Of a DNA stretch of 64,000 nucleotides, positions 21,973-63,542 are shown one piece after another. This stretch comes from Candidatus Nealsonbacteria bacterium DGGOD1a (GTDB taxonomy: Bacteria; Patescibacteriota; Minisyncoccia; Minisyncoccales; UBA5738). A model generated the notes under the pieces. That model was not told the origin of the DNA and made no database searches. It saw only the letters and a program-made list of their open reading frames with translations. Every line of letters begins with the position of its first letter. Position 1 is the first letter of the stretch. The position numbers were made by a program, and so were the translations under genes. Location of the stretch: positions 326,222-390,221 of the forward strand of contig CP092821.1 in assembly GCA_022530585.1 (NCBI GenBank), in the 5' to 3' direction.

Positions 21973-22073
21973 ATTTTAATGCAAAGTTTAAAAATCAAAA
22001 TGAAAAATGACAATGTTAAAATTGCAAAATGTTTTAATTGTCATTTTAATTTTTGATTTTAACATTTTTAATT

Positions 22074-45703: not shown

Positions 45704-48700
45704 ATGGCAAAAGAAAAAGCAAATAAAAATTTTAATGACTTTAAAAATATTTTTCCACTATCAAAAACTCGAAAGTTTTCGTTAATTCCTGTTTTAAACA
45801 TAGAGCAAGAAAGGCGAATATGCATAGAAAAAGGATATTCAAATAAAGATGAAATTACAAGACAAAACAGAGTTGAAAAATTTTTTAAAGATAATAATCA
45901 AGATATTTTTAATGTTGATATTGAAAGAAAAAAACGATATCAAGCGCTTAAGTATTATTTAACTGAATTGCATAAGCTCTTTATTAAGGATTCTTTGGAA
46001 ATGATTAAAAGAAACAACGATATTAATTTTTCTAATCTTTTTGAATTATATATAGGATATGAAGCTTCTAATAATGAAAAAAAAAGAAAGGTTATAGGAA
46101 AAATTAACAATGAAAAGGTTAGATTGGCTAAATATTTTGGAGATAAAGAAGGCAAGGGCGGGGTATTCCAAAAAATAGCGAAAAGATATTACGAATATCT
46201 GGAAAAAAATTTAAGGAATAATGAAAAAATTAAGGGTGGCGATGATAAGCAGAAATTTGCCGATGGGACAAAAAATATTTTGATCTCCCAAAATGTTTTG
46301 ATGATTTTAAGTAAAAAGATAAATGATGGCAGTATTCGGGAAAAAAAAGAGAAAAATCAAGGTAAAGAAAATGAATATGCAATTAAATTCAAAACAAAAG
46401 AAAATAAAGATCAGGAAACAAATTTAGTTGAATATTTTGGTGGATGGTCTACATATTTTAAGAACTTTAATGAGATCAGGGGCAATCTTTATAAAGATGA
46501 AGGAAGAAGACAAGGTGATGAGGGGGATGATGAAACGGGAGAGAAGCTTGTAAAGGCAAATTCAGGACAATTAACAACGCGGATTTTAGACGAAAATTTC
46601 GAGATTTTTGTAAAAAACGCATTTTTGGCAGAAAAAAATAAAATTGACTTAGGTTTAACGGATTATCAAAAGAAGAATGTGATTGCTAATCATAATATTT
46701 TTGAGCCCGATTATTATGCAAATTGCTTATTGCAAGCTGACATAAACACCTATAACGCGGCCATTGCTGAACTTAATAAACTGTTTAACGAGAAAAAAGG
46801 AAAAAAGAAGATTGATTATCTTGAACCATTGTATAAGCAGTTATTATTATCCGATGGCCTTGAGGAGTTTGAAAATGGATATATCAATGAATTTAACAAC
46901 GATTCTGATCTAATTGAGGGATTGGAAAAATTTTATAGGCACGCTCGCGAAAAATTATCCATAGTTGGTAATTTCTTAAAGGATGGTCTAATTAACGGTG
47001 ATTTAGATTCCATACTGCTTAAGGAAAATCAAACGCATTATTATTGTAATATTTTTTTTGGATCGTGGTCGTATATAAGAGATTTGTATTATGAACAAAA
47101 CGGTATTGGTATAAAAAATAGACCCGATAAGAAAAGTGAATTAAAAGATAAGGATGGAAGAACAAAAATAGAGATTTCTTTGGCAGAGATAAAATCAATT
47201 TTAGATGGAATTAGCAAGGAGAGATTTCAAGAAGACATTAAAAATGCAATAGAGAACGCGAAACAGAGGTCAAGATCCGTATTTGATCTTCTAGGTGTTC
47301 ACGGCAGCGAAAAAATTTATAAAGAAGATAAAAGCAATTTTGAAAACTTCGTTTTGTTTTTTAAATTTTATTTTGATTCATTGTTGAATGGTAGAAATTT
47401 GTTGACTGAAAAAGAAAAGAAAGATAAGGAAAAAATTACCCAAATAAAATCATTCTTGCAAAAGTCAAAAACCGAAGGAGAGCGAGTAGATGAATTATTG
47501 ATGTCAAAATTTTCAGAAGCAAATTATTTGGCAAGCATTAACGCAAGTATTAATAAAAAACAAGAGGAATTCGAAAACGAATTTAAAGATTTAAGGCAAT
47601 CAATCAATCTAAAAAAGGGATTATCTCGAAGGAAAGATTTTGAATGCAAACAGGCGATAAACGATTATTGCGTTAGAATTTCCGATATTAACGGTTTTTT
47701 TGCTTTGTTTTCAATTCCAGAGGGTATTGTGGCTGACGGCGATAACGGAATAATCCAAAAGTTTAAAGATAAAAACGAAATAAATGCGCTTTTTGGTGCA
47801 ATCAGAAATTATATTACAAAGAAAGATGCCGGAAATGAAAAAATCAAGGTAACATTCGACAATCCAACATTTTTGGGTGGTTGGGCATATAAAACCACTG
47901 ATTATTGTTGCCGAATTTTGAAGAAACAAGATAATTATTATTTATTAATCATTGGCAAAGAAAAAAGTAAAAATAAAAACGATGTTAGCAAGCAAATAAA
48001 TGTTAATAGTCTCACCGGTTATCAAATGATGGATTATTATCAGCAAAAAGGCCAGACTATTTTTGGATCTGTTTATACGGGAAAATTTGATTCAAAATAT
48101 GGAGATGACAGGACGAAATTGAAGAATTCTGAATTTATAAAAAGAATAGAGCAAATTATTGATGGTCTTAATAGAGAATTTTGTAATGTGCAAAAAGTTA
48201 AAATGCATTTGGAAAGTTTAAAAGAAATGATTAGGGTTGGAAAGTTTAATTTTGGTATAACCGCATCTGATTTTGGCAAAGCTTTTCTTGGGAAAACTGA
48301 AAAATATTACCATCAATATAAAAATAAGAAAGGTATTCTTAATAAAGAAGATGTAATTATCAGTATTTTAAAAGAATTGTTTGGTAGTGAGATGTTTGAT
48401 TATGGACATGAAAAAGATTATTTAGTCAATCGGGTAAAAGAAATAATGAAAGAAGATGCCCCCAAAACGAGTTTTTTAGGGTCTGATTTATTGGCATATG
48501 AAGTTACTAAACTTGAGCCTTATTATTATAAAAATAACTTTAGGGAGATGGATTTCAAAAAAGACGGGATAGATGAAAAATTATTAGATAAAGAATTATT
48601 TATTTTCCAAATTTATTGCAAAGATTTTTCTTTGAAGAGGGGAAGTATAATTCCGAATCCAAAGAAAGATTTAAACACGCTTGAATTTGAGGAACTTTTC

Positions 48701-50176
48701 TCGATAGAGAATAGAGAAAAACCATTGTTTAGATTAGCTGGACAAGCCGAAGTTTTTTTCTATCCTCAAAAAGAAAGCTATAAGGTTGAGCGGTGGTCAA
48801 AAGATGACTTAAAAAATCCGAAAACCGATAAAATTCCGTATAAAAAAAGGCGATACGCGGAAAATCAAATTATTTTTCATATCCCAATAGTTGTGAATAA
48901 TATCAGCAATGGCGGCAATGTTGATAGGAAAATACACGAGTATATTCAACAAAGAAACGATGTAAAGATGTTGGGCATTGATCGTGGAGAAAGGGAGCTT
49001 GCTTATTGTTGCTTGCTTGATGGGAAAGGAGCGATTTGCGGCGATGTGAAATCAATGAATATTGTTGGCTCTAATATCAAAAATGGGATAAAACAGCCGA
49101 TAAACTACCAAAAGAAATTAGATATTAGAGAAAAGGAAAGATTAATGGCCAGACGATCTTGGACCAAGATTGAAAGCATCAAAGATATTAAGCGCGGCTA
49201 TGACGCGAATTTAATGCACGAAATTACGACGCTTATGGCTCAAGAGAACGCGCTGATTTGTTTGGAAGAATTAAATCGTGGATTTAAAAAAGATAGAACA
49301 AGGATCGAAAAGAGTATATACCAGCAATTTGAAAACGATTTAGTTAACAAATTAAATTATTTGGTGATTGAAAAATCACCTCAAGGAGTTAGAAACGCTT
49401 TGCAACTAACACCTCCAAATAGAGCTCAAAAGACTTGGGGTAATCAAATGGGCGCAATTTTTTATACAGATGCAAGATATACATCAAAAACTTGCCCTAA
49501 TTGTGGTTTTAGGCATAGAAGCGTTGGAGGACTGAAAACATCCCAAGAAATAAAGAATAAAATTGCCGCAAAAGAGCTTAGAATATCCTACGATAAAAAA
49601 TACGATAGATTTAGGATTGAGTATCATTGGAATTATGAATTTAAACAGAACAGTAAGCAATGCGAATTTGCAAGCAAAGATTTATACAATGGAGAAATGG
49701 AATATATTTTTTCAGATGTGAACCGAAGTCATTGGAATAATAATGATTTAAAGGATATTTTTAAAGATTACCTCATTGAGAATGAAGATTTGTTTTTGCT
49801 TGTAAAGAATGAGCCGAAATTCCGTTATGTTGATTTTGGTAAAGTATTTGTTAGTCTTACATGGATAAGGCATTCAGTTAAAGAGGGCGATCAAGAATAT
49901 GATGAAATTTCTTGTCCGAAATGCCATTTTTGGACAAGATCTCCAAAAGTTCAAAAAATTAAAGATGGAGATGCAAACGGGGCTTACAATATCGCCAGAA
50001 AAGGATTGATCATTTTGGATAAAATCAGGAGCGAAAAATTAAGAAATAAAATGAATACAAAAAACGGGATTAAGAGCAAGGGCTTAAAAATAAATCTTAA
50101 AGAATGGGATGAAGCAACTTATTCTCAATGGGATAGGAAAGATTGGGGCGAGAGCGATAATAAAAGAGGTTTATAA
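45704..50176 (+). CDS. cas12a: Type V-A CRISPR effector Cas12a (Cpf1), 1490 aa
   Basis: Family-typical motifs FPLSKTRKFSLIP, WSTYFKNFNEIRGNLY, FDNPTFLGGW, LFIFQIYCKDFS, IIFHIPI. Split RuvC: GIDRGE (D1093), ICLEELNRGFK (E1188), DGDANGAYNIARKG (D1423). No HNH. cas4-cas1-cas2 and a Cas12a-type repeat array lie downstream. Confidence 0.95.
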   Translation: MAKEKANKNFNDFKNIFPLSKTRKFSLIPVLNIEQERRICIEKGYSNKDEITRQNRVEKFFKDNNQDIFNVDIERKKRYQALKYYLTELHKLFIKDSLEMIKRNNDINFSNLFELYIGYEASNNEKKRKVIGKINNEKVRLAKYFGDKEGKGGVFQKIAKRYYEYLEKNLRNNEKIKGGDDKQKFADGTKNILISQNVLMILSKKINDGSIREKKEKNQGKENEYAIKFKTKENKDQETNLVEYFGGWSTYFKNFNEIRGNLYKDEGRRQGDEGDDETGEKLVKANSGQLTTRILDENFEIFVKNAFLAEKNKIDLGLTDYQKKNVIANHNIFEPDYYANCLLQADINTYNAAIAELNKLFNEKKGKKKIDYLEPLYKQLLLSDGLEEFENGYINEFNNDSDLIEGLEKFYRHAREKLSIVGNFLKDGLINGDLDSILLKENQTHYYCNIFFGSWSYIRDLYYEQNGIGIKNRPDKKSELKDKDGRTKIEISLAEIKSILDGISKERFQEDIKNAIENAKQRSRSVFDLLGVHGSEKIYKEDKSNFENFVLFFKFYFDSLLNGRNLLTEKEKKDKEKITQIKSFLQKSKTEGERVDELLMSKFSEANYLASINASINKKQEEFENEFKDLRQSINLKKGLSRRKDFECKQAINDYCVRISDINGFFALFSIPEGIVADGDNGIIQKFKDKNEINALFGAIRNYITKKDAGNEKIKVTFDNPTFLGGWAYKTTDYCCRILKKQDNYYLLIIGKEKSKNKNDVSKQINVNSLTGYQMMDYYQQKGQTIFGSVYTGKFDSKYGDDRTKLKNSEFIKRIEQIIDGLNREFCNVQKVKMHLESLKEMIRVGKFNFGITASDFGKAFLGKTEKYYHQYKNKKGILNKEDVIISILKELFGSEMFDYGHEKDYLVNRVKEIMKEDAPKTSFLGSDLLAYEVTKLEPYYYKNNFREMDFKKDGIDEKLLDKELFIFQIYCKDFSLKRGSIIPNPKKDLNTLEFEELFSIENREKPLFRLAGQAEVFFYPQKESYKVERWSKDDLKNPKTDKIPYKKRRYAENQIIFHIPIVVNNISNGGNVDRKIHEYIQQRNDVKMLGIDRGERELAYCCLLDGKGAICGDVKSMNIVGSNIKNGIKQPINYQKKLDIREKERLMARRSWTKIESIKDIKRGYDANLMHEITTLMAQENALICLEELNRGFKKDRTRIEKSIYQQFENDLVNKLNYLVIEKSPQGVRNALQLTPPNRAQKTWGNQMGAIFYTDARYTSKTCPNCGFRHRSVGGLKTSQEIKNKIAAKELRISYDKKYDRFRIEYHWNYEFKQNSKQCEFASKDLYNGEMEYIFSDVNRSHWNNNDLKDIFKDYLIENEDLFLLVKNEPKFRYVDFGKVFVSLTWIRHSVKEGDQEYDEISCPKCHFWTRSPKVQKIKDGDANGAYNIARKGLIILDKIRSEKLRNKMNTKNGIKSKGLKINLKEWDEATYSQWDRKDWGESDNKRGL

Positions 50177-50183
50177 AAATTCA

Positions 50184-50723
50184 ATGGAGGATTATATTCA
50201 GATTTCCAAGATAAATGATTTTGTGTTTTGTCCGTATTCGATTTATTTGCATTCGGTATACGAGAATTTCAACGCCAAAACCTATCATCGGACGGCGCAG
50301 ACCGTGGGCAAGATCGCGCACAGGCCGGTTGATGGCGGAACATACACGACCAGCGCGCGAGTGTTGCAGGGAATGGAAGTTTGTTGCGAGCGGCTGGGGA
50401 TTATGGGTAAAATCGACACATTTGATGCCGAAAGCGGATTGCTGGTGGAGCGCAAATACAAGATCAAAAAGATTTTTGACGGTTATCGCTACCAGCTCTA
50501 CGCGCAAATGTTTTGTTTGCGGGAAATGGGTTATGAAGTGAAATCGCTGGCGATCCAATCGCTGGCGGATAACAAGCGGTATAAAATTTCTTTGCCGGAC
50601 GCACAAGAAACCGCGAAGTTTGAAGAATTGATTGAAGCAATGAAGAATTACCGGCCGAGTCCGCCGGAGAATAAAAATCCGGCAAAATGCGCGCAATGCG
50701 TTTATAAGCCGCTGTGCCATTAA
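50184..50723 (+). CDS. cas4: Cas4 (RecB-like nuclease with 4-Cys Fe-S cluster)
   Basis: N-terminal FCPYS Cys, GKIDTF..LVERKYK (D..ExK), QLYAQM, C-terminal CAQCVYKPLC. ATG is 8 nt after the cas12a stop. Confidence 0.9.
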   Translation: MEDYIQISKINDFVFCPYSIYLHSVYENFNAKTYHRTAQTVGKIAHRPVDGGTYTTSARVLQGMEVCCERLGIMGKIDTFDAESGLLVERKYKIKKIFDGYRYQLYAQMFCLREMGYEVKSLAIQSLADNKRYKISLPDAQETAKFEELIEAMKNYRPSPPENKNPAKCAQCVYKPLCH

Positions 50724-50737
50724 AGAAATTTTCGCGA

Positions 50738-50773
50738 GGGACTAACCCTCGTGATTACTCGAGGGATAGACCC
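50738..50773. repeat. Family A hairpin module inserted between cas4 and cas1
   Basis: GGGACTAACCCTCGTGATTACTCGAGGGATAGACCC is about 85% identical by eye to 8273-8306. Confidence 0.8.
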
Positions 50774-50783
50774 CCGCGAAAAT

Positions 50784-51734
50784 ATGTTGAGTTTGCCTGA
50801 TTTCAAAGAAAAACAATTGTTGTTTGTGAGCGCCAAGAATGCCGAGATTGAAAAGATCAAGTTTTTGAATGACAATATCTGCTTGTCAAAGGACGGAAAA
50901 ATCGTCAACCGGATTTCGTGCCACAAGGTTTTCGCGCTGTTTTTGATCGGCGATTGTTCGCTTACCAGCGTGTTGGTCCGCAATTGCGCCGATTACGGCG
51001 TGTCGATTTTTCTTTTAAAAAATAATTTCTTGAATTATGCGCGGTTGTTGGCGCAAGCGGACGGGAATTATTTGTTGCGCGAAAGGCAATACGCGGCGAC
51101 CGAAGAGCAAGAGCTGGCGGCGGCAAAAATTTTGGTGGCGAATAAAATTTCAAACCAGATTTGCTTGCTGGAAAGTTCGGACGGTAAAGACGCGGCGTTA
51201 TCTTTGGAAAAAATAAAGGCAAAAATCAAAAACGCGCGAAACGGCAAGGATTTGCTTGGATTGGAAGGCGCGGCGGGCAAATTTTTCTTTCAAAGTTATT
51301 TCAAAAATTTGGAATGGAAACGGCGTTTGCCGCGGGCAAAGATTGATATTCCGAATTATTTGATGGATATGGGCTATACGATGCTGTTTAATTTTGTTGA
51401 GGCAATGCTGGGGATATACGGGTTTGATGTCTATCGCGGGTTTTACCACAAGCTGTTTTTTCAGCGCAAATCGCTGGCGTGCGATTTGATGGAGCCGTTT
51501 CGGTGCGTGATTGATAAGCAGATCATGAAATCCCATAATTTGGGGCAGATAAAGGCCAATGATTTCAAATTGAGCAAAGGCGTCTATGGCTTGGGATTTG
51601 AAGAGCAGAAGAAATACGCGGAGATTTTCGCGCAGGCGATTATGGATCGCAGAGAAGACATTTTTTGCTACGCGCGCGATTATTACTATTTTACGATTAA
51701 CGGCGCGGAATTTCCGGCATTTAAGATGAAATGA
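50784..51734 (+). CDS. cas1: Cas1 integrase
   Basis: LLGLEGAAGKFFF (Glu), GFYH (His), LACDLMEPFR (Asp/Glu). The ATG at 50784 is preferred over GTG 50751, which lies inside the palindromic element. Confidence 0.9.
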   Translation: MLSLPDFKEKQLLFVSAKNAEIEKIKFLNDNICLSKDGKIVNRISCHKVFALFLIGDCSLTSVLVRNCADYGVSIFLLKNNFLNYARLLAQADGNYLLRERQYAATEEQELAAAKILVANKISNQICLLESSDGKDAALSLEKIKAKIKNARNGKDLLGLEGAAGKFFFQSYFKNLEWKRRLPRAKIDIPNYLMDMGYTMLFNFVEAMLGIYGFDVYRGFYHKLFFQRKSLACDLMEPFRCVIDKQIMKSHNLGQIKANDFKLSKGVYGLGFEEQKKYAEIFAQAIMDRREDIFCYARDYYYFTINGAEFPAFKMK

Positions 51735-51735
51735 T

Positions 51736-52014
51736 ATGTTTATAGTTTCTTATGATTTCGAAGATACGCGCCGCCGGACGAAATTCTCGAATCTTTTGAA
51801 AAAATACGGCCGGCGATTGCAATACTCGGTTTTTGAGATAAAAAACAGCCAGCGGATATTGGATAACATCCAAAAAGAGATTGATATGAAATATAAGCCG
51901 TACTTTACGAAAAACGACAGTATTGTTATAATTTATGTGTGCGAGGCGTGCAAAGCCAAAGTCAAGCGATATGGTTATGCCGCCAACGAAGAAAAGGAAG
52001 TGGTGTTCTTCTAA
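51736..52014 (+). CDS. cas2: Cas2
   Basis: 92 aa. MFIVSYDFEDTRRRTKFSNLLKKYGRRLQYSVFE is the canonical Cas2 N-terminus. Starts 1 nt after the cas1 stop. Confidence 0.9.
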   Translation: MFIVSYDFEDTRRRTKFSNLLKKYGRRLQYSVFEIKNSQRILDNIQKEIDMKYKPYFTKNDSIVIIYVCEACKAKVKRYGYAANEEKEVVFF

Positions 52015-52201: not shown

Positions 52202-55200
52202 CTCTAATAGGCATATTCAATTTCTACTTTTGTAGATAACAATGTGAAATTGATTTATTTGAACTCTAATAGGCATATTCAATTTCTACTTTTGTAGATT
52301 GACGGGTAAGTTCGCCATTCCTTTAATACTCTAATAGGCATATTCAATTTCTACTTTTGTAGATCTCCAACGCTTCACCTCCGAAATAAGCTCTAATAGG
52401 CATATTCAATTTCTACTTTTGTAGATTCCGCGCAATAATTTAGCTTCCAAATCTCTAATAGGCATATTCAATTTCTACTTTTGTAGATGTGGGAAATAGG
52501 GTTCTGCTGCCGCGGGACTCTAATAGGCATATTCAATTTCTACTTTTGTAGATATTACACAGCACGAAGATAAACACGCCTCTAATAGGCATATTCAATT
52601 TCTACTTTTGTAGATAAAAGTCAAGTATCTGTTTTTTATTTTCTCTAATAGGCATATTCAATTTCTACTTTTGTAGATGAAAGGGTTGAGCGATGATGGA
52701 TCAACTCTAATAGGCATATTCAATTTCTACTTTTGTAGATCTATGAATTGAAATACTTGTGGGGACTCTAATAGGCATATTCAATTTCTACTTTTGTAGA
52801 TGGAAAGCGCGATGATGTGGAACATACTCTAATAGGCATATTCAATTTCTACTTTTGTAGATTCCTCCGGTGTCAACTCTTTGTCCCATCTCTAATAGGC
52901 ATATTCAATTTCTACTTTTGTAGATATGAAAAATTTGCGTGGAGTGCGAGGACTCTAATAGGCATATTCAATTTCTACTTTTGTAGATGGTTAACGCTTT
53001 TTTGCCGCGGAACCTCTAATAGGCATATTCAATTTCTACTTTTGTAGATCTTCTCAACGGTAACGGCAGTTTCTACTCTAATAGGCATATTCAATTTCTA
53101 CTTTTGTAGATACGACGCCATCGGATTTATTCATAACTCTAATAGGCATATTCAATTTCTACTTTTGTAGATATGAACAGGTTGAAGCCTGTCCCTCGCT
53201 CTAATAGGCATATTCAATTTCTACTTTTGTAGATATGCCGACAATCAGATTCCGTTTGAGCTCTAATAGGCATATTCAATTTCTACTTTTGTAGATGAAA
53301 TCGGGTAACTCAACAAAAGCGTCTCTAATAGGCATATTCAATTTCTACTTTTGTAGATTTATTGATTTTGTTTTAGCGTGGATTCTCTAATAGGCATATT
53401 CAATTTCTACTTTTGTAGATTCAAGAGCCATCTTGTAATTATTTTTTACTCTAATAGGCATATTCAATTTCTACTTTTGTAGATGTAAAAAATTGTGCCA
53501 ATGGTGGCGTCTCTAATAGGCATATTCAATTTCTACTTTTGTAGATGTTGTCGGAGCTTTCCTGCCTTCTGACTCTAATAGGCATATTCAATTTCTACTT
53601 TTGTAGATCCAAGCGGCGAGCGCACAAGACCTTGAGTCTCTAATAGGCATATTCAATTTCTACTTTTGTAGATAAAGAGCGCACAGCGATAAGATGTTGT
53701 CTCTAATAGGCATATTCAATTTCTACTTTTGTAGATCTCAAAAAGCGGGGGATGTCGTTCAACTCTAATAGGCATATTCAATTTCTACTTTTGTAGATAA
53801 CACTAATCCCGTGCTTACCGGAGCGACTCTAATAGGCATATTCAATTTCTACTTTTGTAGATATCTGATAATTTGTTCATTTTGTTTTGACTCTAATAGG
53901 CATATTCAATTTCTACTTTTGTAGATAATACGAAGCCGCGATTGCCCCGATACTCTAATAGGCATATTCAATTTCTACTTTTGTAGATTCTATTATTGGA
54001 GGGGTGGTTGATAACTCTAATAGGCATATTCAATTTCTACTTTTGTAGATTCGCTGGTTTAGTTAGCCAGAGATTGACTCTAATAGGCATATTCAATTTC
54101 TACTTTTGTAGATTGCAATAATCGTTATTAACAATTATTCTCTAATAGGCATATTCAATTTCTACTTTTGTAGATTCTATGTGTGCGAACGGGGTATTGT
54201 CTCTAATAGGCATATTCAATTTCTACTTTTGTAGATTAAAAATCTTCTTCTTGTTCCGCTTTCTCTCTAATAGGCATATTCAATTTCTACTTTTGTAGAT
54301 GAATCCCGCTGTTCTTGATTTCTGTGTCTCTAATAGGCATATTCAATTTCTACTTTTGTAGATTTGGCCAATACAACTGATGAATGGTTTCTCTAATAGG
54401 CATATTCAATTTCTACTTTTGTAGATTTTGCCCCGCCGGATACCACCCATTTCCTCTAATAGGCATATTCAATTTCTACTTTTGTAGATTGTACAAACCA
54501 AATAAAGAGGAAATAACTCTAATAGGCATATTCAATTTCTACTTTTGTAGATTTCGTGTGTCGCGAATTTCGAATGTTCTCTAATAGGCATATTCAATTT
54601 CTACTTTTGTAGATATTGACCCGCACTTTTCTTACGGCGAGCTCTAATAGGCATATTCAATTTCTACTTTTGTAGATTCTCCCAAGAGCAAATAATAATG
54701 ATAACTCTAATAGGCATATTCAATTTCTACTTTTGTAGATCGAAGCCTTCCGAAAATTCTATTGGACTCTAATAGGCATATTCAATTTCTACTTTTGTAG
54801 ATTCGCCGATACAATACCACCATATTTTCTCTAATAGGCATATTCAATTTCTACTTTTGTAGATCTTAATTCGCTTACTCTTGCCATTACTCTAATAGGC
54901 ATATTCAATTTCTACTTTTGTAGATTCAAAACAGAATAAAAAAATAATCAACTCTAATAGGCATATTCAATTTCTACTTTTGTAGATGGCGACAGCATAA
55001 TGGCCTTCACGCTCTCTAATAGGCATATTCAATTTCTACTTTTGTAGATACTCCGGCAACCCTATGCCCCGAATTCTCTAATAGGCATATTCAATTTCTA
55101 CTTTTGTAGATGGCGGGGATGGCGGTTATGTGTGCGCTCTAATAGGCATATTCAATTTCTACTTTTGTAGATTTATTCTTTCCGGCGATTGCCACCAACT

Positions 55201-55295
55201 CTAATAGGCATATTCAATTTCTACTTTTGTAGATAAAAAAGTATTCACTTTGTCCTGGGCTCTAATAGGCATATTCAATTTCTACTTTTGTAGAT
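52202..55295 (+). CRISPR. Type V-A CRISPR array: 50 identical 36-nt repeats, 49 spacers of 25-29 nt
   Basis: Repeat is CTCTAATAGGCATATTCAATTTCTACTTTTGTAGAT, counted line by line. The 3' end forms the UCUAC-UUUU-GUAGA crRNA hairpin. Same strand as the cas genes. Confidence 0.98.
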
Positions 55296-55324
55296 TTTTT
55301 TCGTTTTGAATGGGGACTTCAAAT

Positions 55325-55515
55325 TATTTAAATACTTTGAATTACGAAATTAGCGTTTGGGGAAATTTGACTTCAGCTTTTGGGAAGTCAATTTTCACCA
55401 AACGCGGCGGTAACCGCGCGAATTTTGAAATCAAATTTCCGCGATTACGCCGAAAATTGATTTCAAAATTCGCTGTTTCGTAATTCAAAATAAATAAGTA
55501 TTTAAATAAGTATTT
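55325..55515. repeat. Composite nested palindromic element (family A termini, family B-like core)
   Basis: Outer TATTTAAATACTTTGAATTACGAAA pairs with TTTCGTAATTCAAAATAAATAAGTATTTAAATA. Inner modules are AAATTTGACTTCAGCTTTTGGGAAGTCAATTT and GAATTTTGAAATCAAATTT..AAATTGATTTCAAAATTC. Confidence 0.8.
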
Positions 55516-55576
55516 AAATAATAACTTGGTATGAATCGAAAAATTGAAAACAAGAGCATCGGAAAACTTGCCAATA

Positions 55577-55841: not shown

Positions 55842-58800
55842 ATGAAAAAATTTATGAACAATATTTCAAAAACGATATTTGGAAAAGCGGGGAGATCGAT
55901 TCGCAAAGCGACGGTTGTGTTTTTAACATTTGCAACCATTGCGCAGCCCTTGTCGCCGCTGATTGTTTTGGCCGAGGAAACGGCTATCAGCCCGGAATCA
56001 ATTCCGGCCGCGGCTAATGCCGTGGAAGTAATTGAAAACGCGCTCGTTTTGGCAACTCCCGAAATCCCCGGCAACGCAGACTCGAGCGAAAAATCGGAAA
56101 CAAAACCCGCAATCAAAACCGCGCCGGATTCAGACAATCAAACACCCCGGATAATCATCAATTCAATCTCGGATACTTCGTCGTTTTCCGAAACTTTGGA
56201 ATCAAATTCAAGCGAACAATCCCCCAAAACTAAAGTCGCGGCGGGCGCCGGAACAGAAATGAGCGCGATGAACGCCAGCGCCGCGGGAATAAATTCGGTA
56301 AACGGGTTATCGGTTTCGGTATCAAATCCCGCGACAACAAAAAACCAACCCGACATCGACCAGAATACCGGCGCTTTAACATATAGCTTTCCCATTACAG
56401 TGCCGCCGGGCCGGAGCGGAATGCAACCCAACCTTGCCTTAACCTATAATAGTTCCAATAACGAACAAGGGAGCATTTTCGGCTACGGCTGGTCAATCAA
56501 TATTCCCTACATTCAGCGGCTCAACAAATTTGGCCTTAATGAAATGTATCATAACACCGGCAGCTCGGAATTTTTTTACTCGTCGATAGACGGCGAGATT
56601 ACCAGCGCGCTTGATAATTCCAATTTATACTTTGCAAGAACCGAAAATGGAGACTTCAATAAATATCTGTTAATGGACAACTATTGGATAATGCACGGGA
56701 AGGACGGTACGCAGTATAAATTCGGCGATTACGACGCCTCCCGGCAATACGATCCCGGCAATACCGATCATATCTACAAGTGGATGCTGAAAGAAATCCG
56801 CGACACAAACAATAACTTCATAACCTTTTCATATTATAAAGACGCCAACCAAATTTACCCGGAATCAATCAAATACACGGGCAACGGATCCACTGATGGA
56901 ATTTTTGAAGTTTCTTTCATGAAATCTTGGCGTCCAGATAACGGGATTGTTTCATATGATGCCGGATTTCCCGTTACTTCGAATTACTACATTACTGAAA
57001 TTGACACTAAGGTAAACGGCAATTGGGCGATGAAATACTTTCTCAATTACAATCTTAATCCCACCAACACCGGAGCGCTTTTGAATTCCATTGGAACGCA
57101 GGCGCAAGCGGCCGACGGCGTAATAACCGTGCTGCCGCTCGAACAATTCAGCTACCAAAACAACGCCCCCGGCTGGGCGCAAACCGCAACAACAACTCTG
57201 CCGTCTATCAGCTACAAACCGGGACCCGGATTTTCCTTTGCCACCGGCGACCATCAGCAGTTCATCGATCTGAACGGCGACGGTTTGCCCGAATTCATTG
57301 ATTTCGCTTTTTTATATCACGGGGATGGAATCATGACTTCCGATTCCTGTGACTCGCAATACGGTTCCGGCCAAGGATATTCACTTTTAAACGCCGTGGC
57401 CGCCGTGAACCGAAGAAATTACTGGGACAGCGGCGACACCACATGGAAACTTCCACAGGATCAAAACAGATTTTTTGAACGCGCCTGCCTTGACAGCGAT
57501 ATGAATGTGCAATTTGCCGATTTAAACGGCGACAATTTGCCCGACCTTATAAAAAGTTATATTGATTACAAATATTCATCGCCGGAAACTTTGCGAAGCG
57601 AGGTTTATTTGAACAATGGCAATGGCTGGACATTAAGCCCGAATTGGAAACTACCGTCATATACGCTGGGAAGCCAAGGTTATGCGACCACGCAAATTAT
57701 TTTTGGCGATGTCAACGGCGACAATTTGCCCGATTTGATTGAGACCGCCGCATGCTCGGGCTACCATTCCGGATCAAAATGCAGCGTAAACAATTCTCTC
57801 GTTTATCTTAATAATAATGGCTTGGGCTGGGGCCGGAACTACCAATGGGCATTCGGCTCCGCGCCCGGATTCGCATCTTTCCAATTTGTTGATCTGAACG
57901 GCGATGGCGCGCTCGAATTGGTCAGCAGCGCCTATGGAGACGCCGGCGCGCAAATCAAAGCCTATCGACCCGGATCAGATTGGTACCAAGGATGGGCGGA
58001 ATTTAATTCATACTCTATAAATTACGGTAAAGTTAACACCCCATATAGCGGCAGCATCCTTCCGCGCACGACCTTCGCGGATTGGAATAATGACAATCGT
58101 TTTGACGCAGTGGCGTATTTCATTAATAATAATCCTGCCAACAATGTAATCAACGGATACAAAAACGGCATATCGAATTTATCGCCGGCTTCCTTAACTT
58201 TACCGATCAATAATAGCGTGTGCGGCGCCAACAATTCATTCTGCGTCCCGCAATTTTCCGATACCAATGGCGACGGCTTGCAAGATCTTGTTCAAATAAA
58301 CAGCAATGTGACCACCCAAGGAATTGATTTCCGCGGCGCGGTTTTCGCCAACATTGCCCAAAAACAAGATTTGTTAAGCAAGGTATCTTATCCGCAGGGA
58401 GGGGAGACTGCAATCGCTTACAAAACTGCGACGCAATACGCGAACAACAAATCGCCTTACCAGCTGTTTACGGTTTCGCAAATCACAAACAATGATAACG
58501 CCGGCAATTTCGATAGCCACACTTATGATTATTCGGGGGCGTCGTATTATTTTGATTCGCCGATGAACCGCAAGTTTGCCGGATTTAAGATAATTACTCA
58601 AACCGATGCGGCCGGAAATGTTGCGAAAACCTATTTTAACACCGGAAACGGCACCGATTCAGCCAACGGCCAATACGCCGACAGCTATTACAAAATTGGT
58701 AAAGTTTATCGTACCGAGCAATACGACGGCGCGGGAAATCTTTACGCGGCAACAATCAATAAATGGGACTCGTCGCAACGAAATATTAATTCAAATTTTG

Positions 58801-61800
58801 TGTATCCGGCACAAACCATAGAGCAAAGTTACGATGGCCAGGCAACCCACCGCGACAAAGCGCAAAGCTTTTTATACGACAACCAAAGCGGCAATTTGAT
58901 CCAAAAAACCAATCATGGCGAGGTTATTGCAAACCAAGACGGATCTTTTGCCGGAATTGACAGCGCGCAATATACCGCCAGCTATTCTTATGGCCTGTTA
59001 AGAGGCTATTCCACCACTTCATATGTAACGAGCATCCAAATTCGGGACCAAAATTCAAACAAAATAAGCGAATCAAAATTCTATTATGATTGGTCGTCCT
59101 ATAACTATATTATTGCCGGCAACTTGACAAAGGAAGAAAATTGGATTTCAGGTTCAACCTACGCCACATCGTATAAATACTATAATAATTACGGCTTGGT
59201 TGGCCAGTCGGTCGATCCCAACGGCAACTCCACAAATTTTAACTACGACAGTTATAATTTATATCCGGCGGAAGCGATCAACGCGTTCGGCCAAATCACT
59301 AGATATGCCTATGATTATCCATCGGGCCAGGTAACGCAAACTACGGACGCGAACAACTTGCTTTCAAATACGACTTACGACGGTTTTGGCCGGGTCCTGC
59401 GATACTTGGAGTATCCATCGATACAAAGCGCCAAATCAACATTTGTCTACACCGATGTGATTGGAAATTTCAGCGTACAGGAAACCGCCTATCTTAATTC
59501 GCAAACCGCGGTAACCGGTTACAGTTATTACGATGGCTTGGGGCGTTTGATCCAAACCAAAAAATCCGCTCGAAAAGGTAATTTTGAAACGAAAGATTTT
59601 GCTTATGACAATCGCGGCAACTTGCAAAAAGAATCATTGCCGTATTTCACCGCCAACAGCGCGAAAACTAGCCCCACAACAAATTCACTGCTTTACACAA
59701 CCTATTCCTACGACGCGCTGGGCCGGAAAACCAGTGTTGCGAACGCGCTGGGAACCACAACTTACAGTTACAAAAATTGGCAGACGACAATCACCGACGC
59801 CAATTCAAATTCCAAAGATTATTCTTATGACGCATATGGCAATTTAGCAAAAGTTGTGGAACACGACGATTCAAAAGACTACGCTACCGCCTATTCTTAT
59901 GACGGACTGGGTAATTTAACCAATATCACCGACGCATCGGGCAATGTGCGGAATTTCCATTACAATGGTTTGGGCCGCGCTGTAAACATCGAGGATTTGC
60001 ATGCCCCCACAGCCACTGTTTTTGGCTATCGCGGATACCTTTACGATAACGCCGGTAATTTGCTTAAGTTGGTCGATGCAAAAAATCGAACGACCGCTTT
60101 CGAATATGATTCGATCAACCGCCAAAAATCGGAAAGCATTGACGGCTCAACGACAAAAACATTCACCTATGACAATTGCGCCAATGGCGTTGGGCGTTTG
60201 TGTCAAGTTGTTATGTCCGGTGAAACCGAGAATTTTGAGTATTCCATCTTGGGCAATCTCGCCAAAGATACGAAAGTTCGCGATAACCAAACTTTTACCA
60301 CCCAATATACCTACGATTACCAAGGAAATCCGCTCACAATCACCAATCCCGACGGTTCAATCGCAAAATTCAGTTACAACGCCGCAGGCCTGACCGAAAG
60401 CGTTTCACGCCAGGAACCAGCGGTGGCGGCGGTTGGCGTAGTGAGCAGTTTTGATTATTCGCCGGCGCGCCAAGTAAGCGCGCTAAATTACGGCTCCGGC
60501 ATCGCGACCGTTAATACCTTTGATCCAAACCAGCTATATCGCTTAACGCGCAAAATTTCCGGCGTCGGCGCAACCAACTTGCAGGATCTTGCCTATAACT
60601 ATGATGCGGTTGGCAACATCATTAAGATAACGGATAGCTCCGCAACCGCGACAAAGAAAACCGTTGCCTATGGATATGATAAACTTTACCGATTAACATC
60701 GGTTGCGGCCGCAAACACCGCCAACAACCAGAACTACACGCAGAATTTCACCTATGATCCGCTGGGAAATATGTTAAGTCAAAAACTCAATGACCAAACA
60801 ATGAGTTATAGCTACCAGCCAAGCTCGACTCTGGCCAACCCGGACGCGGTTACCTCAATTACAACCAATAATCCTTTGGCGGAGCCAATCATTTCCACTT
60901 TCACCGCCACTCCGGCAACGATCAACGCCGGCGCCACCACGACCTTGGCTTGGACATTATCCGGCGGCGCGCCGACCACGCTGACGATCACTCCAAGCGT
61001 GGGCAGTGTGCTGAACACTCTTTCCAAAGTCGTTACCGTTTCGGCAACCACAACCTACACGCTCACCGCGACCAACGCGGTGGGCACCACTGCCAAAACC
61101 GTGACCGTGAACGCCAAACCGACCGCGCCGGTGATCAAAACTTTCACCGCCGCTCCGGCAACGATCAACGCCGGCGCCACCACGACCTTGGCCTGGACCT
61201 TGGACGGCGGGACTCCCACATCTTTAACAATTAATAATGGCGTGGGTTCGGTGCTGGGTGCGACATCCAAAACGGTATCGCCGGTAACCACCGCTACCTA
61301 CACCTTGACCGCGGCCAATGCCGCCGGGACAGTGACCAAAACGGTTAGCGTCACGGTTATTCCAACTCCGGTGATTTCCAGTTTTACGGCCGCGCCCGCG
61401 GCCATTACCAAGGGGAAATCAGCAACTTTGTCGTGGACGCTTACAGGCGGAACCGCCACCTCGCTTTCAATCAATAATGGCGTCGGGTCAGTTCTTGGAA
61501 AAACATCAGTCACGGTTAAGCCGTCATTGACCACAACCTACACGCTCACGGCGGTTGGTTCGGCGGGAACCGCAACCGCAACTGCAACCGTAACCGTGGT
61601 TGCGGCTCCAACTATTTCCAGCTTTACCGCAAGTTCGGTGAACATTAACCAGGGCGGCTCGGTAACGCTTTCCTGGAAATTAGGCGGCGGCGCTCCCGAT
61701 ACTTTGGCAATTGACAATAATGTGGGTTCGGTTGTCGGTAAAACATCGATTGTCGTGGCGCCAACGCAAACTACAACCTACAAACTGACATCCAAAAACA

Positions 61801-63542
61801 TTGCCGGAACCGCGACTAAAACCGTGAAAGTTACTGTAAAGATTCCCGCTCCGACAATTACCGGTTTCACGGCAACATCGGTCGTTATTAACAAAGGACA
61901 ATCGACAACTTTGTCGTGGACGCTGGGAGGTTCGACTCCAACCACATTAAGCATAGATCAAGGCGTTGGTTCGGTGCTTGGCGCAACCTCAAAAATCGTG
62001 GCGCCCACGAAAACCACCACCTATACGCTGACATCTAAAAATAGCGCCGGGACCGCGACCAAAAAAATTACGATTACGGTTAGGCGAGTTTTTCTGCTTA
62101 ATGATTTGACAAGTAAAATTGTTCGCGCCGCAATCGGTTCGGCGGCAAAGATTTTCGCGGTCATCGCCGATACATTCTCAATTCCCACCGCCTATGCCGC
62201 CGGCGCCACCACCACGGCCAATTATCAATATGACGCCAATGGCAATCTGTTAACCGACGGCAAAACCACTTACACCTACGATTACCAAAACCGCATAGTT
62301 TCAACCGCAACCGGTATAACCGGCGCGAGCACGGTTTCCGCTTACTCGTATGATTTCCAAGGCCAAAGGGATAAATCAGTTGTTACCATCACCACTACCG
62401 ACGCGGCCACGGGGAATGTTACAATAAAGGTAATCACAACCTACACGCCGACAAGCTATTACAGTTCGTCGGTTACAACCACGACCGTAAAAAGTAAAAC
62501 CGGAACGGTTTTGTCCGCCACGACCGCGCCCGCGGAAATCACCAAACACATCTTTGCCAACGGCCGGATGTTGGCCACGGTGAGGGGGACGGGTGCCAGC
62601 GCCAAGGCATATGTAACTCTCACCGACAGCCTAAACGGTTCCACGGTGGTATTGGATTCCAACAATGCCATTGTTGAAACCACGGATTACTATCCCTTTG
62701 GCGCGATCCGGTTTGACAATCAAGTAAATTCGTACAATGAAAAGCGCAAATACATCGGTCAGGAGTACGATGCCGAAACCAGCTTGTCATACCTCAACGC
62801 CCGGTATTACAATGGAACCATCGGCAGATTCATAACCCAAGACCCGGTCTTCTGGGGAAATCAGAATTTGAGCGATCCGCAGAGCTTGAATGCGTATTCG
62901 TACGCTAACAACAATCCGATTACCTTGAGCGACCCGAGCGGGTTGATGACACTCGCAGAGATACAAACTCAGATAGACTCAATCAAATCGCAAATTGGGA
63001 CGCTCACGAAAGCGGTTGGCGATTATACGGCACAAGCGGGCAAAGCGGCGGTAAATGGCGTTAAATCGGCGGCGACTACTGCTTACAACGCTACCACAGG
63101 TACTGTCGCAAAAGCTAAAAATTATGTTTCCAATTCTGACCCGGACAAGAATATTTTTGCATCCCGTAAAAATCCCAACGGTACGGATGGTTTATCGAAT
63201 TTTGACGCTTTTTTGACATTCGGGATGCCCGGTGTTGGCGGTATGATGGTTGGCGCTGGGAAAGGAATTGGCAAAACCGCAATCGTAGTTAAAAAAGCGT
63301 TAGCTGATGAAAATAAATTTACGCACCTATTTAACAATACCAAGCATGGTTTGGCACCATTGGTGGAACAATTTGGTAGTCAAAAAAATGTAATTCAAGA
63401 GGTGGCAAAAAACATTGTAGGTAAATATCAAGGTAGTGGCGTAAACGAAATAGTTGTAAAAATTGGTGATACCATGGTAACGGTGAGAGGCCAAATTGTT
63501 GATGGGATTGAACGTATCGGCACTTTCTTTGTTAAAAATTAA
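55842..63542 (+). CDS. Giant SpvB/FG-GAP/RHS-repeat polymorphic toxin (2566 aa)
   Basis: N-terminal anchor. SpvB-like GALTYSFPITVPPGRSGMQPNLALTYNS..GYGWS. Five DLNGDGLPE-type FG-GAP/VCBS repeats. Dozens of YD repeats (YDGLGRL, YDALGRK, YDAYGNL..). RHS core end YLNARYYNGTIGRFITQDP..NPITLSDPSGL, followed by a 198-aa variable tail. Confidence 0.9.
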   Translation: MKKFMNNISKTIFGKAGRSIRKATVVFLTFATIAQPLSPLIVLAEETAISPESIPAAANAVEVIENALVLATPEIPGNADSSEKSETKPAIKTAPDSDNQTPRIIINSISDTSSFSETLESNSSEQSPKTKVAAGAGTEMSAMNASAAGINSVNGLSVSVSNPATTKNQPDIDQNTGALTYSFPITVPPGRSGMQPNLALTYNSSNNEQGSIFGYGWSINIPYIQRLNKFGLNEMYHNTGSSEFFYSSIDGEITSALDNSNLYFARTENGDFNKYLLMDNYWIMHGKDGTQYKFGDYDASRQYDPGNTDHIYKWMLKEIRDTNNNFITFSYYKDANQIYPESIKYTGNGSTDGIFEVSFMKSWRPDNGIVSYDAGFPVTSNYYITEIDTKVNGNWAMKYFLNYNLNPTNTGALLNSIGTQAQAADGVITVLPLEQFSYQNNAPGWAQTATTTLPSISYKPGPGFSFATGDHQQFIDLNGDGLPEFIDFAFLYHGDGIMTSDSCDSQYGSGQGYSLLNAVAAVNRRNYWDSGDTTWKLPQDQNRFFERACLDSDMNVQFADLNGDNLPDLIKSYIDYKYSSPETLRSEVYLNNGNGWTLSPNWKLPSYTLGSQGYATTQIIFGDVNGDNLPDLIETAACSGYHSGSKCSVNNSLVYLNNNGLGWGRNYQWAFGSAPGFASFQFVDLNGDGALELVSSAYGDAGAQIKAYRPGSDWYQGWAEFNSYSINYGKVNTPYSGSILPRTTFADWNNDNRFDAVAYFINNNPANNVINGYKNGISNLSPASLTLPINNSVCGANNSFCVPQFSDTNGDGLQDLVQINSNVTTQGIDFRGAVFANIAQKQDLLSKVSYPQGGETAIAYKTATQYANNKSPYQLFTVSQITNNDNAGNFDSHTYDYSGASYYFDSPMNRKFAGFKIITQTDAAGNVAKTYFNTGNGTDSANGQYADSYYKIGKVYRTEQYDGAGNLYAATINKWDSSQRNINSNFVYPAQTIEQSYDGQATHRDKAQSFLYDNQSGNLIQKTNHGEVIANQDGSFAGIDSAQYTASYSYGLLRGYSTTSYVTSIQIRDQNSNKISESKFYYDWSSYNYIIAGNLTKEENWISGSTYATSYKYYNNYGLVGQSVDPNGNSTNFNYDSYNLYPAEAINAFGQITRYAYDYPSGQVTQTTDANNLLSNTTYDGFGRVLRYLEYPSIQSAKSTFVYTDVIGNFSVQETAYLNSQTAVTGYSYYDGLGRLIQTKKSARKGNFETKDFAYDNRGNLQKESLPYFTANSAKTSPTTNSLLYTTYSYDALGRKTSVANALGTTTYSYKNWQTTITDANSNSKDYSYDAYGNLAKVVEHDDSKDYATAYSYDGLGNLTNITDASGNVRNFHYNGLGRAVNIEDLHAPTATVFGYRGYLYDNAGNLLKLVDAKNRTTAFEYDSINRQKSESIDGSTTKTFTYDNCANGVGRLCQVVMSGETENFEYSILGNLAKDTKVRDNQTFTTQYTYDYQGNPLTITNPDGSIAKFSYNAAGLTESVSRQEPAVAAVGVVSSFDYSPARQVSALNYGSGIATVNTFDPNQLYRLTRKISGVGATNLQDLAYNYDAVGNIIKITDSSATATKKTVAYGYDKLYRLTSVAAANTANNQNYTQNFTYDPLGNMLSQKLNDQTMSYSYQPSSTLANPDAVTSITTNNPLAEPIISTFTATPATINAGATTTLAWTLSGGAPTTLTITPSVGSVLNTLSKVVTVSATTTYTLTATNAVGTTAKTVTVNAKPTAPVIKTFTAAPATINAGATTTLAWTLDGGTPTSLTINNGVGSVLGATSKTVSPVTTATYTLTAANAAGTVTKTVSVTVIPTPVISSFTAAPAAITKGKSATLSWTLTGGTATSLSINNGVGSVLGKTSVTVKPSLTTTYTLTAVGSAGTATATATVTVVAAPTISSFTASSVNINQGGSVTLSWKLGGGAPDTLAIDNNVGSVVGKTSIVVAPTQTTTYKLTSKNIAGTATKTVKVTVKIPAPTITGFTATSVVINKGQSTTLSWTLGGSTPTTLSIDQGVGSVLGATSKIVAPTKTTTYTLTSKNSAGTATKKITITVRRVFLLNDLTSKIVRAAIGSAAKIFAVIADTFSIPTAYAAGATTTANYQYDANGNLLTDGKTTYTYDYQNRIVSTATGITGASTVSAYSYDFQGQRDKSVVTITTTDAATGNVTIKVITTYTPTSYYSSSVTTTTVKSKTGTVLSATTAPAEITKHIFANGRMLATVRGTGASAKAYVTLTDSLNGSTVVLDSNNAIVETTDYYPFGAIRFDNQVNSYNEKRKYIGQEYDAETSLSYLNARYYNGTIGRFITQDPVFWGNQNLSDPQSLNAYSYANNNPITLSDPSGLMTLAEIQTQIDSIKSQIGTLTKAVGDYTAQAGKAAVNGVKSAATTAYNATTGTVAKAKNYVSNSDPDKNIFASRKNPNGTDGLSNFDAFLTFGMPGVGGMMVGAGKGIGKTAIVVKKALADENKFTHLFNNTKHGLAPLVEQFGSQKNVIQEVAKNIVGKYQGSGVNEIVVKIGDTMVTVRGQIVDGIERIGTFFVKN
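60881..62087 (+). repeat. Five tandem ~80-aa (~240-nt) Ig-like beta-sandwich repeats inside the RHS gene
   Basis: Each unit reads P.I..FTA.P..I..G...TL.W.L.GG....L.I...VGSV.G..S..V.P...TTY.LT..N..GT.TKTV.VTV. Units 1 and 2 share a near-identical ~55-nt stretch (60901-60955 vs 61145-61199). Confidence 0.85.
62946..63539 (+). other. C-terminal variable toxin module of the RHS protein (family unassigned)
   Basis: Begins right after the DPSGL (62931-62945) RHS core boundary. 198 aa; no motif recognised. Confidence 0.6.

Follow-up and report, generated by a model that had tools for sequence, protein, structure and literature searches.

The protein of 1,490 amino acids (aa) analyzed here is a true type V-A effector, Cas12a, encoded in a complete cas12a-cas4-cas1-cas2-CRISPR locus on a 64-kb stretch of DNA (hereafter, the window) from Candidatus Nealsonbacteria bacterium DGGOD1a. 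It has probably kept, at the base of its Nuc domain, the two CxxC pairs of the ancestral TnpB/Cas12f zinc ribbon, with the four cysteines likely coordinating one structural Zn2+, a reading to which we assign a probability of roughly 80%. Metal binding, a structural and not a catalytic role for the metal, and ancestral retention of the cysteines over their regain are the parts of this reading that we infer from sequence comparison. The host is an uncultivated ectosymbiont of the candidate phyla radiation (CPR) with a closed genome of 1.16 Mb. Its locus has previously been published as type V/Cas12a, the zinc-ribbon feature being absent from that genome paper, and the gene product (UMX48270.1, an exact-sequence match) carries the annotation "hypothetical protein."

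The features on which the argument depends are listed below, "clade" referring to the group of long relatives that is delimited further on.

45704-50176, + strand: cas12a gene, 1,490 aa (translation of the open reading frame [ORF], profile and PDB matches)
48980-48982, + strand: RuvC-I catalytic Asp D1093 (GIDRGE), clade-invariant and aligned with the LbCas12a motif
49265-49267, + strand: RuvC-II catalytic Glu E1188 (CLEELN), clade-invariant and aligned with the LbCas12a motif
49481-49510, + strand: knuckle 1, T1260-F1269 (TSKTCPNCGF), with C1264 and C1267, directly after the last RuvC-II strand
49514-49900, + strand: Nuc-domain insertion, residues ~1271-1399, between the knuckles (Foldseek alignment)
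49907-49930, + strand: knuckle 2, I1402-F1409 (ISCPKCHF), with C1404 and C1407, 16 residues before D1423
49964-49996, + strand: RuvC-III motif DGDANGAYNIA, with the invariant catalytic Asp D1423 at 49970-49972

Identity of the effector

An earlier note on this DNA had called the protein a Cas12a ortholog, and profile and fold comparisons bear this out. The Cas12a equivalog TIGR04330 (cas_Cpf1, NCBIfam) matches at 365.8 bits (cutoff, 300; E = 4.9e-109) and Pfam RuvC_1 matches at E = 1.7e-61, while the significant sequence matches in the PDB are exclusively Cas12a (phmmer, E = 4e-73 to 2.5e-55). Over its full length, the RuvC-Nuc region shows 35-36% identity to Cys-bearing and Cys-less Cas12a alike (blastp, E = 1e-47 to 1e-63). 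An AlphaFold2 (AF2) model of residues 1035-1490 (456 aa), built with a 61-sequence alignment, has a predicted local distance difference test score (pLDDT) of 88.9 and a predicted template modeling score (pTM) of 0.88. The best fold matches of this model (Foldseek) are LbCas12a, FnCas12a and AsCas12a, with a query template modeling score (TMq) of 0.72 to LbCas12a and of up to 0.73, and 430-446 of the 456 residues are aligned to the Cas12a RuvC and Nuc region.

The protein shares with canonical Cas12a (Lb, Fn, As, Mb) the TIGR04330 match, the RuvC residues D/E/D, the fold of the C-terminal half and the Nuc arginine (R1389 at 49868-49870, the Arg of an (L/I)R(N/H)S motif, invariant in the clade), as well as a V-A repeat with a UCUAC-N4-GUAGA handle and cas4-cas1-cas2 neighbors. 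It differs from canonical Cas12a in four respects: both CxxC knuckles are present where the canonical proteins read (D/C)PxT and SPV, it is ~260 aa larger (insertions in REC1, REC2 and the protospacer adjacent motif [PAM]-interacting, or PI, domain), its PI domain is without the LPGPNKMLPKVFF loop, and no His is found where Lb H759 / Fn H843 sits.

Two CxxC knuckles on either side of the Nuc domain

The 1,490-aa translation holds the peptides FYTDARYTSKTCPNCGFRHRS and YDEISCPKCHFWTRS, and the residues and nucleotides previously given for the four cysteines agree exactly with the codon positions: C1264 (TGC, 49493-49495), C1267 (TGT, 49502-49504), C1404 (TGT, 49913-49915) and C1407 (TGC, 49922-49924). 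The protein has 18 cysteines among its 1,490 residues. In a 17-sequence alignment of the clade, all four cysteines and both adjacent prolines are invariant at a mean column identity of 49%, which indicates that the cysteine pattern is not due to chance. Invariant residues of knuckle 1 are T1260, S1261, T1263, C1264, P1265, C1267 and G1268, and those of knuckle 2 are C1404, P1405 and C1407, with C1404 lying 15 residues past R1389. When aligned with classical orthologs, C1264 and C1267 fall on the D and T of TSKIDPxTGF, and C1404 and C1407 fall in the pre-RuvC-III S-P-V...N segment.

The native protein scores 24.2 bits on PF07282 (Cas12f1-like TNB), under the cutoff of 26.3, and does so with knuckle 1 only (residues 1254-1272); half of the profile is matched because the ~130-aa Nuc domain interrupts the ribbon. 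A composite in which knuckle 1 was joined to knuckle 2 in silico, with the ~130-aa Nuc insertion deleted, scores 34.6 bits (E = 2e-8) over profile positions 21-60 of 60 without a break, versus 12.2 bits for a LbCas12a composite built likewise, which places the four cysteines at zinc-ribbon positions. The likeness to the TnpB/Cas12f TNB lies in a CxxC...CxxC arrangement between RuvC-II and RuvC-III, immediately before the RuvC-III Asp, and the difference lies in the splitting of the DGGOD1a ribbon by the Nuc domain. With 137 residues from C1267 to C1404, the ribbon is not a compact one, in which tens of residues separate the pairs. The motif context, TSKxCPxCG ... CxxCxF(D/H)(S/T), is common to the Cas12a2 ribbon (TSKTCPRCG...CFVCGFDT).

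In the AF2 model, each CxxC forms a tight turn that ends a beta-hairpin (pLDDT 93-96), the turn of knuckle 1 lying between bridge residues 229 and 236 of the modeled fragment (pLDDT ~93) and knuckle 2 coming after strand 363-369 (pLDDT 94-96). We infer that the four sulfurs would converge and bind zinc.

Distribution of the four cysteines among Cas12a orthologs

A HMMER search with the C-terminal 456 aa against 1.84 billion cluster representatives returned 1003 relatives at E <= 1e-3. The protein's own clade occupies bit scores of 598-308 and is followed by a gap, the remaining family beginning at 225 bits. This long clade consists of 1415-1497-aa proteins with 32-73% identity that are chiefly metagenomic and belong for the most part to CPR and other uncultivated bacteria; its named members come from Patescibacteria, Roizmanbacteria and Dependentiae, and one member (P0016) had already been included in a published V-A alignment.

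The cysteines do not set this protein or its clade apart, as four cysteines are also present in proteins of standard length (1180-1381 aa) and in KaCas12a. Of the 149 nearest relatives in a motif census, 44 had both knuckles, 105 had neither and 0 had only one. By alignment, the nearest scorable representatives have four cysteines in 50/163 cases and miss a complete first knuckle in 113/163, with ~21 of these 113 retaining the first Cys alone, as in FnCas12a TSKICPVTGF. An independent set of GTDB genome loci gives four cysteines in 11/75, none in 64/75 and half states in 0. Four-Cys orthologs are a large minority, not the majority, in both sets (50/163 and 11/75), and these fractions overestimate the family-wide frequency because similarity to the query determined the ranking of both sets. 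The hosts of the four-Cys GTDB loci are Wildermuth-, Doudna-, Gottesman- and Saccharibacteria, other Patescibacteria, Dependentiae, Muiribacteriota and uncultured Gammaproteobacteria.

The other four-Cys Cas12a (KaCas12a, P0025-P0034, P0038-40, P0068, P0096, P0103 and the GTDB loci) resemble the DGGOD1a protein in having a split ribbon that flanks Nuc, its pairs 132-193 aa apart, and the motifs TSxxCPxCG[FWY] / CPxCxF; they differ from it in being mostly of standard length, many of them with a classical PI loop. KaCas12a is one of the eight Cas12a references in a Nature 2026 supplementary FASTA (PMC12851939), where it reads YTSKTCPECGF ... INCPCCGFDS, and as it goes unmentioned in the main text, it apparently served as a tree reference only. 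A literature search, which was not exhaustive, found no description of an explicitly zinc-ribbon-bearing Cas12a, and none of the solved Cas12a sequences inspected combines the ribbon with Nuc. The reading TSKIDPxTGF / SPV that had been ascribed to well-studied orthologs stands for LbCas12a, Pb2, Ml, Mp and Ma, and for the first knuckle of MbCas12a, and it fails for FnCas12a, which keeps one Cys. The four-Cys trait is real and is common to dozens of uncharacterized Cas12a lineages, and it is a modest evolutionary curiosity.

The strict all-or-none occurrence of the knuckles gives the best indirect support for the four cysteines acting as one unit. It also bears on the possibility that the cysteines are vestigial, disulfide-forming or idle, so that the protein would work like a Cys-less Cas12a. 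Classical Cas12a does work without the site, and zinc is in principle dispensable for the fold. We nevertheless consider this possibility improbable, since the cysteines are invariant in a clade whose members share as little as 32% identity, the all-or-none pattern in 149 and 75 sequences indicates selection on a four-Cys unit, and disulfides are disfavored by a reducing cytoplasm. Moreover, the homologous cysteines are essential in Cas12a2, where Cys-to-Ser mutations in the ribbon, whose cysteines are C1170, C1173, C1188 and C1191, abolished activity (bioRxiv 10.1101/2022.06.13.495973).

Ancestral or derived state

A neighbor-joining (NJ) tree was computed from 168 sequences and 374 columns of the RuvC-Nuc region, with Cas12a2, Cas12a3 and Cas12a4 from the Nature supplement as the outgroup. 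With the Cys columns kept, the four-Cys sequences make up a basal grade, and all the Cys-less ones, LbCas12a among them, fall together in a single nested clade. In a second analysis with 40 bootstraps, the four Cys columns were dropped to keep the character itself from shaping the tree; the long clade was then monophyletic in 40/40 bootstraps and the ingroup was monophyletic versus Cas12a2/a3/a4 in 37/40, and Fitch parsimony gave 2-5 changes with a four-Cys root state. A single loss of the cysteines, as in the first NJ tree, was rejected as not robust once the Cys columns were removed and the tree was bootstrapped.

The best reading of these comparisons is that the four-Cys state was retained from a TnpB-like ancestor and then lost a few times. 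Convergent regain of the cysteines in several lineages, in place of retention, would be compatible with the poor support of the deep NJ nodes, with the 2-5 state changes and with the lone Cys at position 1 in some Cys-less sequences, e.g., FnCas12a. It appears very unlikely in view of a motif context (TSKxCPxCG ... CxxCxF[DH][ST]) identical to that of the outgroups and of TnpB-type ribbons, of the four-Cys root state and of the zero sequences with one complete knuckle alone; repeated regain of four coordinated residues is also far less parsimonious than a few losses.

Comparison with Cas12a2, Cas12a3 and Cas12a4

Cas12a2, Cas12a3 and Cas12a4 are RNA-triggered, have a zinc-ribbon (ZR) domain, Cas12a-type repeats and cas4-cas1-cas2, and are found in Roizmanbacteria and other CPR. 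The DGGOD1a protein has knuckle motifs homologous to theirs and likewise comes with Cas12a-type repeats and type V adaptation genes. It differs in that a compact ribbon replaces Nuc in those proteins, whereas the DGGOD1a protein has a full Nuc, and in that a large insertion replaces their bridge-helix region, the similarity between the two being local only. In addition, the Roizmanbacteria Cas12a3 of the Nature supplement (PMC12851939) has 1080 aa, unlike members of the long clade.

These shared traits, together with the non-classical PI module of the DGGOD1a protein and the lack of protospacers in our spacer searches, are what could make it an RNA-triggered member or functional analogue of this group and not a DNA-cutting Cas12a. 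Several lines of evidence leave this with a very small probability. With the RuvC-Nuc region as the query, phmmer finds no PDB Cas12a2 or Cas12a3 chain at E <= 10, and blastp gives local matches of 24-30% only (1e-11 to 0.009), versus 1e-47 to 1e-63 for Cas12a. For the middle region of the protein, the E-values are 7.5e-8 with FnCas12a, 4.5e-4 with Cas12a3 and 0.54 with Cas12a2. The full Nuc between the pairs (137 aa) is unlike Cas12a2, and the distance from RuvC-I to RuvC-II is 95 aa versus 93 aa in LbCas12a, which leaves no room for the large insertion domain of Cas12a2/a3. The ingroup is also separate from these outgroups in the 37/40 bootstraps given above. Sequence, architecture and tree all speak against a homolog of Cas12a2/a3/a4.

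Extra length and the PI module

The protein had been described as ~200 aa longer than familiar orthologs, with K/E-rich insertions. Both descriptions are accurate: solved Cas12a chains have 1206-1365 aa, and an L-INS-i alignment to LbCas12a gives insertions that sum to 256 aa and deletions of 36 aa. The two segments of the protein that stand out in this comparison are as follows.

46325-46561, + strand: REC1 region with two K/E/D-rich insertions, residues 208-231 and 269-286 (L-INS-i versus LbCas12a)
47951-48553, + strand: variant WED-II/PI module, residues ~750-950 (motif, identity and fold comparisons)

The peptides REKKEKNQGKENEY (beginning at residue 212) and DEGRRQGDEGDDETGEK (beginning at residue 265) are both in REC1 insertion segments. 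Further insertions relative to LbCas12a are found in REC1 (39-57 and 149-184), at several places in REC2 within 499-639, in PI (829-865 and 873-895) and in the C-terminal tail, and the net length of the Nuc domain is not above that of LbCas12a Nuc. A link between the ~200 extra residues and the ribbon is not upheld, since the insertions lie in REC1, REC2 and PI and Nuc is of normal size; judged by this alignment, extra length and putative zinc ribbon are independent features.

The WED-II/PI module is left unaligned to solved Cas12a by phmmer. Outside residues ~750-950, the protein and its closest homolog, P0001, are 74-96% identical, compared with 12-26% inside, and two PI types are found in the long clade: "...IPK[CS]STQL..." in P0001, P0011, P0012 and P0024, and "MDYYQxKGQTIFGS," which is without the classical PAM loop, in the DGGOD1a protein and ~10 other members. 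A motif similar to the latter is also present in an unrelated short ortholog (P0019). This pattern points to a probable swapping of the WED-II/PI module as a block. When residues 690-1075 were modeled with AF2, the helical core reached pLDDT 86-95 and the overall pLDDT was a weak 67; the best fold match of this model is again Cas12a, weakly so (TMq 0.33, E = 7.5e-8).

Points that weigh against the reading

Besides the similarity-ranked sampling noted above, a number of observations weigh against a zinc-stapled protein that retains an ancestral ribbon and otherwise acts as Cas12a. In the tree without the Cys columns (NJ only), the Cys-less group is monophyletic in 1/40 bootstraps, and this weak deep topology fixes neither the number of losses nor the branching depth of the long clade. 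The earlier proposal of a deep-branching lineage that preserves the ribbon is supported in its second half, by the four-Cys root state, and not in its first.

The PI domain is atypical. The classical loop LPGPNKMLPKVFF reads the PAM, its Lys being inserted at the T-rich PAM; the PI module of the DGGOD1a protein is ~60 aa longer and reads YYQQKGQTIFGSVY in its place, with a conserved Lys still present near the classical position. The WED RNase site that processes the precursor of the CRISPR RNA (crRNA) is reportedly formed by Fn H843/K852/K869, as is said to have been described by Fonfara in 2016 and Swarts in 2017. No His is found between AEVFF and FHIPI in the DGGOD1a protein or the clade consensus, in an alignment that is gappy there. 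The site of the missing His is the WED-III loop AEVFFYPQKESYKVERWSKDDLKNPKTDKIPYKKRRYAENQIIFHIPI (residues ~1014-1053, window positions ~48740-48860); the same column holds T, K or N in other four-Cys lineages and is mostly His in the Cys-less orthologs shown, and Lys residues are present in this segment of the DGGOD1a protein (LKNPKTDK, YKKRRY). Maturation of crRNA may differ in the long clade. A His-to-Asn change in "NLHTLY" (here DLNTLEF) was considered as the loss of the processing His and rejected, as the His that catalyzes processing lies farther downstream, in "VVHP" (Lb). Because the PI domain is atypical and the processing His is absent, full functional equivalence to characterized Cas12a is an assumption.

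Finally, the spacers offer no view of the targets. The complete array, compared with 50,697 phage records by blastn, gave only noise at E ~0.9, no spacer self-matches occur within the 64-kb window, exact 22-mers of three spacers had no match in IMG/VR, and two spacers tried against JGI metagenomes had none there; the published DGGOD1a genome paper likewise reports no spacer targets. With no protospacer found, neither the PAM nor the choice between DNA and RNA targets can be read from the spacers.

The locus and the rest of the window

The gene order is cas12a, cas4, cas1, cas2 and CRISPR array, with the array on the same strand.

50109-50723, + strand: cas4, longest ORF of 204 aa with ATG at 50109 (TIGR04328 type V Cas4, 229.6 bits)
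50751-51734, + strand: cas1, type V (TIGR04329, 320.6 bits; cutoff, 300)
51736-52014, + strand: cas2, 92 aa (ORF; PF09827 on the public gene call)
52202-55295, + strand: CRISPR array, 50 identical 36-nt repeats CTCTAATAGGCATATTCAATTTCTACTTTTGTAGAT and 49 spacers of 25-29 nt

The longest cas4 ORF overlaps the final 68 nt of cas12a, and public gene calls start cas4 at ~50184 (179 aa), ~8 nt past the cas12a stop. The shorter form is likelier because the Cas4 hidden Markov models match the long ORF only from its residue 30 onward. The repeat is of the canonical V-A type, with a 3' end, AATTTCTACTTTTGTAGAT, that folds to a 5-bp stem with a 4-nt loop, and its UCUAC-N4-GUAGA handle conforms to the Cas12a repeat pattern UCUAC[N3-5]GUAGAU. 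The 49 spacers span 52238-55259 and have a GC content of 42.5%, far higher than that of cas12a (30.7%). GC content is ~45% in the window, 44-52% in the flanking genes and ~43% in a 2-kb window spanning most of cas4-cas1-cas2; the low value of cas12a suggests that the effector gene was acquired or replaced later than its surroundings.

Just past the last repeat, at 55300-55540, are apparent inverted-repeat stretches (ggggaaatttgacttc...gaagtcaattttcacc) and short tandem copies of TAAATAAGTATT. Immediately downstream of the array, at 55842-63542 on the + strand, is a 2566-aa ORF with SpvB, TcdB middle/N, FG-GAP and RHS-repeat domains, which looks like a polymorphic toxin of the Rhs/Tc type and is notable in the 1.16-Mb genome of an ectosymbiont. 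Elsewhere, the - strand at 18595-23675 encodes a resistance-nodulation-division (RND)-type efflux permease (1125 aa) adjoining a membrane-fusion adaptor. A Rfam scan of the 64-kb window found no tRNA or other family at threshold.

Possible role of the putative zinc site and its implications

In Cas12a, the Nuc domain is located next to the RuvC active site and assists in loading the target strand. In the DGGOD1a protein, the chain exits RuvC via knuckle 1 and re-enters it via knuckle 2, and one Zn2+ on C1264, C1267, C1404 and C1407 would clamp both RuvC-Nuc crossings, fixing the base of Nuc, the target-strand-loading domain, to RuvC beside R1389 and D1423. A clamp-type role has been attributed to the ribbon in TnpB, Cas12f and Cas12a2. 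In the crown group, which holds all characterized Cas12a, the knuckle positions read D/C-T-S-x and the site would be metal-free.

A broader proposal, that the long clade is a functionally distinct V-A sublineage with a Zn-stapled Nuc, an exchangeable non-classical PI and no canonical processing His, is doubtful on the sequence comparisons made here. If it held, PAM and target requirements, crRNA maturation or stability could differ from those of characterized Cas12a, and the four-Cys grade could represent a living intermediate between the compact TnpB/Cas12a2 ribbon and a metal-free Nuc.

The significance of the finding is moderate, because the trait is common among uncharacterized orthologs, and the understanding of how Cas12a acts is unchanged by it. 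At a practical level, expression and purification of four-Cys orthologs may require zinc and reducing conditions. If zinc is bound, these proteins would be natural Zn-stapled orthologs for probing Nuc positioning, thermostability and trans-cleavage. Zinc binding would further imply that Nuc arose as an insertion into a TnpB zinc ribbon and that the metal site was lost later, in the lineage that gave every genome-editing Cas12a, which would provide a testable polarity for Cas12a evolution.

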